From the IMG/VR virus record IMGVR_UViG_3300005611_000023, positions 1 to 61,726 of that record: a DNA stretch of 61,726 bases. The stretch is one strand, 5' to 3'. The first letter of the stretch is position 1. Each line of letters begins with the position of its first letter. The position numbers and the translations under genes are program-made. The notes below the pieces were generated by a model, which was not told the origin of the DNA, made no database searches, and was given only the letters and a program-made list of their open reading frames with translations. Below are positions 802 to 50,669 of this stretch, piece after piece. This stretch comes from a virus. Its lineage: Duplodnaviria; Caudoviricetes.

Positions 802-1713
802 ATGGCAATTTCACGCGCCCAGCTCCTTAAAGAGCTACTTCCCGGTCTGAACGCACTGTTCGGCTTGGAATATCAAAAGTATGGTGAAGAGCACAAAGAA
901 ATCTTTGAAGCAGAGACTTCTGAGCGTTCTTTCGAGGAAGAAACTAAGTTGTCTGGATTTGGAACTGCTCCTGTAAAGGAAGAAGGTTCTTCAATCTCTT
1001 ATGACAACGCACAAGAAGCATGGACTTCGCGTTACACACACGAAACTATTGCTCTTGGATTCTCTATCACTGAAGAAGCGGTAGAAGATAACCTATATGA
1101 CTCATTGTCATCTCGTTATACCAAGGCATTGGCTCGTGCTATGGCGTACACCAAGCAGACTAAGGCTGCTGCTGTACTGAACAACGGCTTCGACTCTAGC
1201 TACACTGGTGGCGATGGTGTTGAGCTATTTTCTACAGCGCACCCACTTGTTTCTGGTGGAACTAACTCAAACGAGCCTTCAACTGCGGCTGACCTTAACG
1301 AAACTTCTTTGGAAGCGGCTGTTATTCAGATTGCAGGTTGGACTGACGAGCGTGGTCTGTTGATTGCAGCTAAGCCACGTAAGCTCATCATTCCACCAGC
1401 GTTGATGTTCGTTGCAACTCGTCTTCTCGATACGGAAGGCCGTGTAGGAACTGCGGATAACGATTTGAACGCACTGCGCTCAAATGGTGCCATCCCAGAA
1501 GGCTACACAGTCAACCACTTCTTGACTGACGATGACGCATGGTTCTTGACTACTGATGTACCTAACGGTCTCAAGCACTTCGTACGTACGCCAATGGCGA
1601 CTGGTATGGACGGTGACTTCGATACTGGTAACGTACGTTACAAGGCTCGTGAGCGTTACAGCTTCGGCTGGTCAGACCCACTGGGAATCTTCGGATCTCC
1701 GGGTGCTGCGTAA
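802..1713 (+). CDS. Major capsid protein
   Basis: 303 aa, MAISRAQLLKELLPGLNALFGLEY N-terminus typical of aquatic phage capsids, strong AAGGAG RBS, followed by a terminator, position after scaffold. Confidence 0.85.
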   Translation: MAISRAQLLKELLPGLNALFGLEYQKYGEEHKEIFEAETSERSFEEETKLSGFGTAPVKEEGSSISYDNAQEAWTSRYTHETIALGFSITEEAVEDNLYDSLSSRYTKALARAMAYTKQTKAAAVLNNGFDSSYTGGDGVELFSTAHPLVSGGTNSNEPSTAADLNETSLEAAVIQIAGWTDERGLLIAAKPRKLIIPPALMFVATRLLDTEGRVGTADNDLNALRSNGAIPEGYTVNHFLTDDDAWFLTTDVPNGLKHFVRTPMATGMDGDFDTGNVRYKARERYSFGWSDPLGIFGSPGAA

Positions 1714-1737
1714 GTAGCTTTTAAGCTACTGCAATAG

Positions 1738-1760
1738 GGGGAGCTTCGGCTCCCCTTTTT
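1738..1760 (+). terminator. Rho-independent terminator after capsid gene
   Basis: GGGGAGC-TTCG-GCTCCCC followed by TTTTT. Confidence 0.9.
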
Positions 1761-1762
1761 AT

Positions 1763-1791
1763 TTGACTCAATCTTTTACCTGTGCTTTAGT
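1763..1791 (+). promoter_or_regulatory. Putative sigma70 promoter
   Basis: TTGACT-17 nt-TTTAGT with TGn extension, just after the terminator. Confidence 0.45.
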
Positions 1792-1799
1792 AAGCGTAA

Positions 1800-1866
1800 C
1801 TAGGAAATTGGTGCGTCGGACTGACCTAGCAGACGACATGCAGACAGGCGCACTTAACTCGCATGT
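1800..1866 (+). ncRNA. Candidate structured RNA (double pseudoknot) in 5' leader of gene 1879
   Basis: Three crossing helices: CTAGG 1800-04/CCTAG 1825-29; GTGCGTC 1811-17/GGCGCAC 1847-53; ACATGC 1836-41/GCATGT 1861-66. Confidence 0.55.
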
Positions 1867-1878
1867 GAGGACATCGCA

Positions 1879-3398: not shown

Positions 3399-3634
3399 TG
3401 GCGAGCAAGATACAAAAACTCAGCGAAGTTACAGTGTCGATGGAAGACCGGGAACTGCAGGCAAAGGATGTATTACTGCTGTTAGCTGGGCATGAAGAAG
3501 AATGTAGTTCTAGGTACGAACGTATAGAAGAGAAGCTGGCCGATCAAAAGGCGTTTCTTGAGAAATTAGATCTACGGATGTGGGGCTTAGCCGTACTTAT
3601 CGTAGGTGTTGCTGTAGCAGAGAGGTTTATGTAA
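3398..3634 (+). CDS. Small coiled-coil protein with C-terminal TM helix
   Basis: ATG overlaps upstream TAA; HEEECSSRY coiled segment then hydrophobic tail. Confidence 0.6.
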   Translation: MASKIQKLSEVTVSMEDRELQAKDVLLLLAGHEEECSSRYERIEEKLADQKAFLEKLDLRMWGLAVLIVGVAVAERFM

Positions 3635-3888
3635 TGGCGAGTAAATTATTGAAAGCAGTCAGCCCTTTAGCGGCGGCTAGTGGTGGGATCAAGAGCTTCG
3701 CTCAGAACTTCTCGCCCATGTACAACCTTGCCAAAAAAGATGACAAGGAAAACGACTCCTTACTTCGTAAAGCTATGAAGCAGGGCGCAGCGGGTAAAGC
3801 TGCCGGTATGAAGAAAGGTGGCAAAGTTAAGAAGAACCGTGGTGACGGTATCGCTCAACGTGGTAAGACAAAAGGACGTTTTGTATGA
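3634..3888 (+). CDS. Small basic protein with MKKGG and RGDGIAQRGKTKG motifs
   Basis: ATG 3634 overlaps upstream TAA; GAGG RBS. Confidence 0.65.
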   Translation: MASKLLKAVSPLAAASGGIKSFAQNFSPMYNLAKKDDKENDSLLRKAMKQGAAGKAAGMKKGGKVKKNRGDGIAQRGKTKGRFV

Positions 3889-4241
3889 AAAAGCAAACAA
3901 AGATGGCTCGTGGCGGTAAAATGCCTATGACCAAAATGAAAGCAGGCGGCAGCAACAAAATGCCGATGGTAATGAAAGACGGCAAGATGGTACCTGCTTT
4001 TGCTGCGGATGGTGAGGGCAAAATGGCCCGTGGTGGCAAAACCAAGATGATGTCTCGCGGTGGCAAAACCGAAGAGAAGAAAATGGCTCGCGGCGGTAAG
4101 ACTAAGATGGCTCGCGGCGGTATGGCTAAGACTAAGATGGCTCGTGGTGGTGCGTCTACCGTTAAGAAAATGGGTCGCGGCGGATCAAGCGGCATCGATG
4201 GTTGCGCTATGAAGGGTAAGACTCGCGGTAGGGTAACCTAG
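3885..4241 (+). CDS. Basic repeat protein with eight MxxGG motifs
   Basis: 118 aa: 5x MARGG plus MKAGG, MSRGG, MGRGG; ATGA overlap. Confidence 0.75.
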   Translation: MKKQTKMARGGKMPMTKMKAGGSNKMPMVMKDGKMVPAFAADGEGKMARGGKTKMMSRGGKTEEKKMARGGKTKMARGGMAKTKMARGGASTVKKMGRGGSSGIDGCAMKGKTRGRVT

Positions 4242-4245
4242 CACC

Positions 4246-4701
4246 GTGGCGGAACGTGGTAATAAAGCGGTAGGGGAAGCACTTGTAAAAAACTACAAGG
4301 ATGGCGACTCCTGCCCTATTGCTACAACTGACGTAGCCCTTAATACGAAAAACCGCGACATCGCTGTTAAAGAGCGAGGTTACGGACCCATGAATCCGGG
4401 CGAGCCTAACAAAAAGTTTTGGAAGGGTATCGCTGATTTATGGGACATTTCGGAAGAAGAGGCTAAGTCTTCCCGTTGTGCGAACTGTGCGGCGTTTATT
4501 CAGACCCCCAAAATGCTGGCGTGCATTGAAAACGGGTTGGGGCTTGATGATGACTATGCGCCGCAAGGCGCGAAAGATATGGGCGAAAATCGGTCCAGAA
4601 CGCTTGAAGCCGCTGACTTGGGTTATTGCCAACTGTTTGCGTTTAAATGCGCGGCGGATCGGACTTGTAGGGCGTGGCTTTTTGGAGGCCCAATCAAGTA
4701 A
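4246..4701 (+). CDS. Cys-rich protein (possible metal/Fe-S binding)
   Basis: CANC...GYC...KC...TCRAW cysteine pattern. Confidence 0.6.
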   Translation: MAERGNKAVGEALVKNYKDGDSCPIATTDVALNTKNRDIAVKERGYGPMNPGEPNKKFWKGIADLWDISEEEAKSSRCANCAAFIQTPKMLACIENGLGLDDDYAPQGAKDMGENRSRTLEAADLGYCQLFAFKCAADRTCRAWLFGGPIK

Positions 4702-49685: not shown

Positions 49686-50669
49686 TTAGTTGAAATACTT
49701 GTTGTTCGCCTGATTGGGCGTCTTGCCCACAGGCACTTCTTTATCGTAGAACACCTCCTCTCTGTGCATCTTCAATACAAAATCATCGAACGCTTTGACT
49801 ACTCTGTTAGGCGTACACCCCCGAATACTGGTTCCGCTACTCCAGTAGTCACGGTCACCCGCACCCCACGCGCAGGCAAGTAACAGCTTGTGCGACATAT
49901 CGAGATCGCCCTCGTTCGCTAGACTTACCATCTCCACGATGTCGTCTTGATGCTTCATTCCATACTGAACTTCGATCTTTGGCACTATGCGCTGAACTAC
50001 CCAATACTCGCTAGCTGTCCCCGTTATGCGCGGCTCACGGTCTTCGGGCATATTCACTTTGAACGCCTCCATAAACTCATCGTAGGTATACTCGGGGTCA
50101 TGTATCTTGCTCATGCTACGCAAGTAGTCATAGACGCGTTTGTACTTTGCACGCACCGCCTTGGCGACACCTCGGTCAACCGCCTTCTGCGTTATCGCTG
50201 GTGGGTTCGTATACTCAATGCGACCGTCCTTCCATTTAAGTATCGATGGATCTTTGGCGAACGCTGGCCTTAGCGGTAACATCGCATGTGTATGCACCCA
50301 CAACTTATTGGCCTGTCTGGTGAAGTTGATACCCAACAGGCTCGTCAGTTGCTCGTACACGCAGTTGTACATGGGCGCGTTGATGTGGATCTCTCCATTC
50401 TCCTTCCACTTAACGATGTAGTCCCACTCATCTTTGGGCTGACCGCAGTTCCAACCATCAAAGTACACAACGTCACCGTTCGCCAGAGTTTTGATCTGCA
50501 TATACTTACGCTCACGCAAGTGGATCGGCTTTATATCTGTGCCACGGATCGGATTCACATTGTTCTCATGCGTCAACGCCTTCATATAGGTGTCGAGCAG
50601 AGGAAACGCATTACACTTAAACATCATTCTCTCCCATCTTCCGTTTTGTGATATCCATTTGACTGCCAT
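49686..50669 (-). CDS. Hypothetical early protein
   Basis: 327 aa with GGGAG RBS. Confidence 0.8.
   Translation of the reverse strand: MAVKWISQNGRWERMMFKCNAFPLLDTYMKALTHENNVNPIRGTDIKPIHLRERKYMQIKTLANGDVVYFDGWNCGQPKDEWDYIVKWKENGEIHINAPMYNCVYEQLTSLLGINFTRQANKLWVHTHAMLPLRPAFAKDPSILKWKDGRIEYTNPPAITQKAVDRGVAKAVRAKYKRVYDYLRSMSKIHDPEYTYDEFMEAFKVNMPEDREPRITGTASEYWVVQRIVPKIEVQYGMKHQDDIVEMVSLANEGDLDMSHKLLLACAWGAGDRDYWSSGTSIRGCTPNRVVKAFDDFVLKMHREEVFYDKEVPVGKTPNQANNKYFN

Follow-up and report, generated by a model that had tools for sequence, protein, structure and literature searches.

The stretch of DNA analysed here (the window) is a complete phage genome of 61,726 bp with direct terminal repeats. Between its major capsid protein gene and the next virion gene, on the plus strand at 1800-1866, it encodes a knotted RNA of about 67-68 nt built from four helices (P1, Px, P2, and P3). 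This RNA is real and strongly conserved, and its arrangement is not due to chance. The element is the structural counterpart of Mu-gpT-DE (Rfam RF03012), with the long hairpin of that family replaced by a short hairpin, Px, plus a helix of the 5' tail, P1. It is a more elaborate form of this orphan family, undescribed in the literature searched, and its carriers are a large group of aquatic phages. From comparison of the sequences, the element is probably a 5' leader acting in cis on the virion-gene mRNA, where it would gate translation and shield the 5' end.

Genomic Context and Anatomy of the Element

The original prediction described three interlocking helices (P1, P2, and P3) joined by GAC-containing linkers, with the 3' strand of P3 adjoining a GAGG Shine-Dalgarno (SD) sequence. 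Reading of the sequence showed the helices and the linkers to be present as written, and GAGG at 1867-1870 directly follows position 1866. The helices also proved to be more than chance in shuffling tests and to covary in related phages. The features of the region are as follows (alignments A1 to A5 and models R1 and R2 are described below).

802..1713, plus strand: major capsid protein gene, Mu-like gpT type (PHROG 371 major head protein, E = 8e-22)
1736..1757, plus strand: terminator-like hairpin and T run, 3' of the capsid gene (consensus scan; 9-bp stem, 6 GC pairs)
1763..1791, plus strand: promoter-like TTGACT (1763-68), 17 nt, TTTAGT (1786-91) (read from sequence; weak)
1800..1804, plus strand: P1 5' strand CUAGG, pairs with 1825-1829 (5 bp)
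1810..1819, plus strand: P2 5' strand, pairs with 1845-1854
1820, plus strand: junction A between P2 and Px (invariant column in MAFFT alignments A1, A3, and A4)
1821..1823, plus strand: Px 5' strand CUG, pairs with 1830-1832
1825..1829, plus strand: P1 3' strand CCUAG, inside the Px loop (read from sequence, and covariation)
1830..1832, plus strand: Px 3' strand CAG (covariation, R2 alignment)
1833..1834, plus strand: junction AC between Px and P3 (G-A-C at 1832-1834 invariant in A1, A3, and A4)
1836..1841, plus strand: P3 5' strand ACAUGC, pairs with 1861-1866 (six inner pairs covary)
1842..1844, plus strand: junction AGA between P3 and P2 (GA at least 90% conserved in A1, A3, and A4)
1845..1854, plus strand: P2 3' strand (covariation, R2 alignment)
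1861..1866, plus strand: P3 3' strand GCAUGU, SD immediately 3'
1867..1870, plus strand: Shine-Dalgarno GAGG, 0 nt gap from P3
1879..2361, plus strand: gene for a 160-aa virion-type beta-rich protein, the first gene downstream of the leader (ORF; ATG at 1879)

In Pfam, the product of 802-1713 matches Phage_capsid_4 with 57 bits and Mu-like_gpT (PF10124) with 35.5 bits (cut-off 20.1). A Mu-like gpT head subunit gene therefore lies upstream of the element, the location given for RF03012, with 87 nt between the capsid stop codon and the start of the element. Weak Rfam matches to sRNA terminators in the window are confined to the hairpin at 1736..1757.

P2 has a 7-bp core (1811-1817/1847-1853, including one U-G pair) that is extended on the outside by a G-U pair at 1810/1854; on the inside, past a G1818-A1846 mismatch, it is closed by G1819-C1845. 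This closing pair joins the G of 'GAC' to the C of 'AGAC' in the linkers and covaries among relatives (G-C 35, A-U 11, G-U 5), so that the unpaired junction is A / AC / AGA. P3 is taken as 6 bp because 40 of 57 cells lack pairing at its outermost (seventh) column pair. Px (1821-23/1830-32) is a fourth helix of 3 bp in which a C-N-G pattern faces C-N'-G; it is 100% paired in the R2 alignment, where its middle pair is U-A in 42 rows, A-U in 12, and C-G in 5. The layout of the Px loop is always one free base, then the P1 3' strand, with 0 bases after it, and in the window five of the six loop bases are paired with 1800-1804.

The original prediction also included a hairpin competing with the knot. 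Its inner part, CTG 1821-23 with CAG 1830-32, is conserved and covarying, but the outer GTCG/CGAC is not conserved in relatives, and the hairpin is better read as Px, which appears able to coexist with P1. The argument is a geometric one by analogy with kissing loops and H-type pseudoknots: Px may stack on P1, the two helices coexisting in a kissing-type geometry. Alternatively, the RNA might have two states in which either P1 or Px forms.

Chance and Covariation Tests

Within 1795-1875 the best interlocked three-helix arrangement scores 47 on a simple pair score. Only 2 of 1000 dinucleotide shuffles reached this value (any such triple occurred in only 110), and so did 5 of the 3084 natural 81-nt stretches taken from both strands of the phage. 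The nested fold of 1796-1890, computed with ViennaRNA, to which pseudoknots are invisible, is ordinary at -21.6 kcal/mol (z = -0.01), and 89 of 200 shuffles fold equally well; the signal thus resides in the pseudoknots.

For covariation, relatives were collected from IMG/VR by a scan with the capsid protein. At least 600 stretches matched, and the best 80 (83-95% identity) were used together with the window. Two MAFFT alignments (A1 and A3) and the alignment of covariance model R1 (A2) misaligned the P3 3' strand between subgroups, and 42 of the 58 unique sequences, those whose ends MAFFT had set flush, were therefore realigned (A4). This alignment was the seed of the cleaner model R2. The 16 sequences left out of the seed (the window, L001, L002, L022, L036, L037, L039, L044, L045, L052, L054, L058, L066, L070, L072, and L077) were all recovered and aligned by R2.

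In a structure-blind MAFFT alignment of 43 sequences, 78.9% of cells were paired vs 60.2% in shuffled controls. With trimmed MAFFT on 42 unique sequences this rose to 89.8% vs 63.5% (0 of 500 shuffles reached it), double-sided changes were found at 21 of 21 pairs, and the covariation score was 0.706 vs 0.241, with 22-50% pairing for slid partners. The R2 alignment (A5, 61 distinct rows) gave 91.5% vs 64.3% for shuffles and 22-47% for slid partners; these counts include four misaligned rows (L009, L051, L036, and L037) and one spurious match, which lower the figures. Taken singly in the R2 alignment, the five P1 pairs are 89-92% paired with double-sided changes in all of them. All nine P2 pairs covary and P2 is 93.8% paired, even though both P2 and Px are absent from the model behind that alignment; RNAalifold without a supplied structure also predicted both P2 and Px. 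The rows represent related phages whose capsid proteins share 83-95% identity, so that cells cannot be counted as independent events; the stronger argument is the slid controls together with the multiple pair types per column (up to six).

Could the arrangement be due to chance, or be a signal at the DNA level without RNA structure? The ordinary nested fold energy would fit such a reading, but compensatory changes occur in all helices, G-U cells outnumber A-C cells in paired columns (44 vs 21, an RNA-strand signal), and the element always has the same orientation. Within the reach of sequence analysis, covariation has already refuted this reading, and we give it virtually no weight. The original prediction had proposed aligning post-capsid regions of related phages as a check, and the helices passed it with both shuffle and slid-partner controls.

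Distribution among Related Phages

The long form, as we call the architecture of the window, is present in 68 of 81 sources (the window and the best 80 of at least 600 matching stretches), once in each and on the strand of the capsid gene. After the capsid gene these relatives show the same three helices in differing sequences. Model R1, built on a plain MAFFT alignment, gave 68 matches in the window and the 80 loci, and R2 found the same 68 plus one spurious match (50308-50336 of the window, minus strand, 11.5 bits). Of the 13 sources without the long form, three end too early (L024, L032, and L073), seven carry RF03012, and the others are L005, L008, and L050. At L005 a GIY-YIG/NUMOD3 homing endonuclease gene (3999-4604) fills the gap between the capsid and downstream genes, the leader is absent, and the start of the downstream gene overlaps the end of the endonuclease gene. 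Sequence similarity at L008 (4009-4483) continues through the P1 5' strand CTAGGAATG and is followed by unrelated sequence coding on the opposite strand; this break exactly at the element could be a rearrangement or an assembly chimera. At L050 neither R1 nor R2 found an element after the capsid gene.

In nine loci (L066 at 4013-4612, L075, L031, L015, L055, L074, L016, L033, and L009) the capsid gene is followed by an extra ORF before the element begins, with a gap of about 600-1000 nt. Because the extra ORF parts the element from the capsid gene, the element belongs to the downstream gene, and in these loci the leader carries its own clear TTGACA-type promoter. The extra ORF of L066, the only one measured and scanned, encodes 200 aa and has no Pfam match; we take its N-terminus to resemble those of phage homing-endonuclease-type proteins.

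In five of five related long records just one copy is significant (E <= 1e-4); a further noise-level match (E ~0.8-1.0) appears in two. Among 34 MAG-binned contigs there are 19 additional copies (E < 0.01). These contigs (L082-L115) are binned into unrelated phyla, including Ignavibacteria, Actinomycetota, Bacteroidota, Chloroflexota, and Saccharibacteria; L091 is a phage stretch within a 1.12-Mb 'chromosome' of a Dehalococcoidia MAG. Assigning hosts from the MAG labels was rejected: the 34 loci span many unrelated phyla and are read as phage contigs swept into bins, which makes the labels unfit as hosts.

A cultured SAR11 phage, Pelagibacter phage HTVC023P, carries the long form at MN698239.1 26776-26844, after the capsid gene gp40 and before gp41 (42.9 bits, E = 4e-11), with TATAAT ending 7 nt 5' of P1 and AGGAG right after P3. 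In Pelagibacter phage HTVC027P (L237:1690-1800) R2 gives a divergent candidate just 5 bits. Visual inspection suggests a P2-like stem, a P3-like CCUAG/CUAGG overlapping the SD, and a possible P1 (ACUGUA/UACAGU), and this candidate may be a third sub-type of the leader. The gene pair of Rhizobium phage RHph_Y25 is 12 nt apart, and the R2 search found no element there.

Transcription Start and Ribosome-Binding Site

A promoter-like sequence had been noted upstream of the element. TTGACT and TTTAGT are indeed present and relatives have -10 boxes, but the sequence in the window is weak: it was not called by the consensus scan, and TTTAGT fails the TANNNT test. Of 61 unique upstream regions from relatives, 36 have a TANNNT box that ends 5-11 nt before P1, compared with 12, 3, 1, and 1 at control offsets. 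Transcription is thus predicted to start near the P1 5' strand. Two loci, L053 and L069, leave no space for a promoter between the hairpin after the capsid gene and P1, so that the element there must arise by read-through. Transcript data are sparse over this region: 24 RNA-seq runs contained at most 0.17 of the sampled words, and the contigs of four runs from one study, thin in coverage, include none across 1706-1807 and cover 1808-1960 sparsely.

At the other end of the element, the distance from the last P3 pair to the start of the SD is -6 to +5 nt in 56 of the 58 unique sequences. It overlaps P3 in 9, begins 0-2 nt after it in 21, and begins 3-5 nt after it in 26; in 2 of the 58 the parser picked an ATG inside P3. 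In the 26 long forms with the SD 3-5 nt beyond P3 the SD is itself unpaired, and simple SD sequestration is therefore not the whole mechanism.

Since the RNA begins near a predicted transcription start, it might be mainly a protective 5' knot against 5'-end-dependent RNase E/RppH or the 5'-3' exonuclease RNase J, much as exonuclease-resistant RNAs are, with translation unregulated. Pairing of the 5' terminus is known to stabilize bacterial mRNAs (the E. coli ompA-type stabilizers). Both P1 and the outer stem of RF03012 begin a few nt from the predicted start, and the 5' tail passes into a hairpin loop enclosed by P2. A plain 5' hairpin would suffice for protection, however, and this reading leaves unexplained both the invariant junction bases and the landing of the 3' helix on the ribosome-binding site or start codon; as the main role we regard protection as unlikely.

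Relationship to Mu-gpT-DE (RF03012)

Against Rfam 15, neither region 1500-2200 nor the whole genome (7 candidates scored) matched any family at E <= 10, and the element of the window falls short of the RF03012 gathering score of 49 bits. Nine long-form loci searched in the same way had nothing over the element at E <= 10, with sub-threshold matches elsewhere in L022 and L003. In seven sister phages among the 81 sources, RF03012 itself occupies the equivalent locus, with scores of 72.6, 69.1, 62.2, 61.2, 60.9, 60.6, and 43.2 bits, the last below the 49-bit cut-off. Two further copies were found in 20 MAG loci scanned. The Rfam search suggested in the original prediction, in which a match to a described family would remove novelty, is therefore half answered: the window matches no model, yet its structural counterpart RF03012 stands at the same place in sister phages.

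The RF03012 structure in Rfam consists of a 4-bp closing stem, an A, a 5-bp hairpin, a 13-nt internal loop, the SD, and AUG. Its parts correspond to those of the long form as follows.

RF03012 closing stem: long-form P2
RF03012 A: long-form A
RF03012 hairpin: long-form Px
RF03012 AC: long-form AC
RF03012 loop strand: long-form P3 5' strand
RF03012 GA: long-form GA
RF03012 closing-stem 3' strand: long-form P2 3' strand

The A / AC / GA junction is present in nine of nine model-found RF03012 copies and in the Rfam consensus. The window has this layout, with P2 as the closing stem, Px as the hairpin, and A1820, A1833-C1834, and G1843-A1844 conserved. An RF03012-type hairpin would be expected to have about 5 bp or more and a free loop; Px in the window has 3 bp and a paired loop.

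When RF03012-like copies were fetched by a pattern that leaves the loop free, at least 120 stretches were obtained, including 111 unique ones, and in 106 an ATG follows no more than 14 nt away. Among these 106 listed copies the loop varies with the start of the gene: GCC goes with GCN (Ala) as codon 2 in 68 and CCC with GGN (Gly) in 37, leaving 1 exception. The mean length of the complementary run is 5.14 nt vs 4.31 nt with permuted partners (0 of 1000 permutations reach it). Since the loop covaries with the start codon and codon 2, the short form also has a P3-like pseudoknot, placed on the AUG. The matches listed that show this pairing include L116-L195, with L097:3490-3540 and L100:3486-3538 as further examples. 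Such a start-codon pseudoknot is absent from the Rfam structure line in the cmscan output, and no earlier description of it was found in the literature searched, although the ZWD alignment may hold it. In the window the pairing is a different one, 1836-1841 with 1861-1866, upstream of the SD. The RF03012 closing stem covers part of the SD, and a -10 box is adjacent to RF03012 forms in 86 of 108, compared with 34, 14, 3, and 6 at control offsets.

The two forms share their setting and their plan. Both follow a Mu-like gpT capsid gene and its terminator hairpin and precede the next virion gene on the same strand, with one copy per genome where tested (the window and five long-form relatives). 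Each consists of a stem, A, a hairpin, AC, a strand of 6-7 nt pseudoknotted to the 3' tail, GA, and the 3' strand of the stem, with a -10-like box beside the start and the ribosome-binding site at the end. Unlike RF03012, the long form has a hairpin of only 3 bp whose loop pairs with an added 5' tail (P1), making a second pseudoknot; its closing stem is 9-10 bp vs 4; its pseudoknot lies just before or on the SD and not on the start codon; and it is the commoner form among the relatives of this capsid (68 vs 7 of 81). The RF03012 model misses the long form, and R1 and R2 miss the RF03012 copies. Because neither model detects the other form, the case for common descent is built on position and architecture only. 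What emerges is a natural helix swap, a long hairpin exchanged for a short hairpin plus a 5'-tail helix. Mu-gpT-DE thereby gains a second, commoner architecture that is missed by the Rfam model and is present in a cultured SAR11 phage. That helices swap around the junction while the junction itself stays unchanged marks it as the probable functional core.

Rfam types Mu-gpT-DE as 'Gene; sRNA', and a promoter-like box lies upstream of the element, as would be expected of a trans-acting small RNA gene transcribed from its own promoter. However, the element lacks a 3' terminator and leads directly to the SD and start codon of the next gene. Its 3' helix engages this ribosome-binding site, and it occurs as a single copy per genome, always before the same gene position. 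We judge a small RNA gene to be very improbable. Each form opens an mRNA and base-pairs with the ribosome-binding site or start codon of that message, and this favours a cis-regulatory leader over a 'downstream element' or sRNA.

Earlier descriptions appear to be scarce. In the main text of Weinberg 2017 (PMC5737381) the terms 'capsid', 'head subunit', and 'downstream element' are all absent. In the literature searched, Mu-gpT-DE is only named in a list, in the Rivas preprint, which also states that the ZWD alignment differs from that of Rfam. PMC10690425 has a supplement of 10,006 candidate phage RNAs. The double-pseudoknot form is undescribed in the literature searched; it or the start-codon pseudoknot may be recorded in the supplements of PMC5737381 and PMC10690425 or in the ZWD alignment.

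Proposed Function and Comparison with Known RNAs

Among the functions offered in the original prediction, a translational switch fits best: the RNA covaries on the mRNA strand, lies near the predicted transcription start, and ends at the ribosome-binding site. For a packaging RNA no support was found. In the mechanism that we propose, 1800-1866 would be the 5' leader of the mRNA of the virion gene cluster beginning at 1879. P2 closes a three-way junction with the unpaired bases A / AC / AGA, and one arm of the junction is the 3-bp Px, with a loop that would pair with the 5' end of the transcript (P1). The strand following Px pairs with the 3' tail in P3, which ends exactly at the SD. A 5' end buried in this way would be protected from 5'-end-dependent decay, while a rigid pseudoknot on or against the ribosome-binding site would set or gate initiation of the downstream gene. 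It is from this architecture that we infer effects on both translation and stability.

There are precedents for such an arrangement. The T4 gene 32 leader, the rpsO/S15 operator, and the SAM-II and preQ1-II riboswitches are 5'-UTR pseudoknots in which a 3' helix at the ribosome-binding site controls initiation. Compared with these pseudoknotted operators and riboswitches, the element has no sequence or model similarity and no assigned ligand or protein, and it has four helices in two interlocked pseudoknots. The T4 gene 32 case is mentioned in PMC10690425.

The conserved junction suggests a specific partner. As to what opens or locks the leader, a phage or host protein is slightly favoured, though at low probability, over a constitutive or kinetic leader, and control by a small molecule is somewhat less probable than either. 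No riboswitch family in Rfam matches, and the conserved unpaired junction bases would be compatible with a pocket. A bolder and rather doubtful idea is that the long and short forms make up a new class of effector-binding leaders with one A / AC / GA junction and exchangeable arms, or else the first phage counterpart of an exonuclease-resistant 5' knot. If there were such a sensing class, the effector might be a small molecule or a capsid-assembly protein, for example free capsid or decoration protein. Very abundant phages of fresh and marine waters, SAR11 phages among them, would then tie synthesis of a capsid-surface protein to the infection state.

The shape of the element also invites comparison with compact catalytic and exonuclease-resistant RNAs. 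The pistol ribozyme and flavivirus xrRNA are about 50-70 nt long with interlocked helices, and the xrRNA fold incorporates the 5' end. The element differs from both in having no Rfam match and no conserved cleavage-site linker, and its helix order is different once Px is counted. A small ribozyme was another function originally proposed, and one could imagine a new self-cleaving motif that processes the capsid/post-capsid transcript. The compact double-pseudoknot fold and invariant junction bases would suit a ribozyme, the helix order may be similar to that of pistol, and read-through RNA exists in the two relatives without room for a promoter. On the other side, no Rfam self-cleaving ribozyme (hammerhead, twister, twister-sister, pistol, hatchet, HDV-like, glmS, and others) matched at E <= 10. 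The P2-P3 linker, where cleavage would be needed, has no conserved bases and differs between subgroups. Most copies start at the predicted transcription start with nothing upstream to remove, which makes a ribozyme less likely still, and we place very little confidence in it.

The Downstream Gene and Its Neighbours

The 160-aa protein encoded after the leader has no PHROG or Pfam family above cut-off and no meaningful PDB sequence match. It has 4621 environmental homologues (E <= 0.001), and those with a named source are 'hypothetical'; given the abundance of this family, the target of the RNA is widespread. Homologues occur in Pelagibacter phages HTVC023P and HTVC027P and in Rhizobium phages. 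An AF2 model of the protein (mean pLDDT 66) gave weak fold matches to a phage capsid spike and to tailspike N-domains, with 0 matches to PDB folds at E <= 0.001. Proteins that follow the leader have about 16 N-terminal residues in common, M-A-x-T-T-F-x-G-P-V-x-S-x-N-G-F or the variants MGFATHLGPWLLG and MALSTTQSIWRSGG, and the complete ones range from 117 to 246 aa in length. This suggests a common anchoring N-terminus combined with exchangeable outer domains.

Further downstream in the window, two adjacent ORFs at 3580-3888 and 3885-4241 encode very basic products rich in Gly, Lys, and Arg, the second with repeated K-M-A-R-G-G-K units. These two products may be internal or DNA-associated virion proteins.
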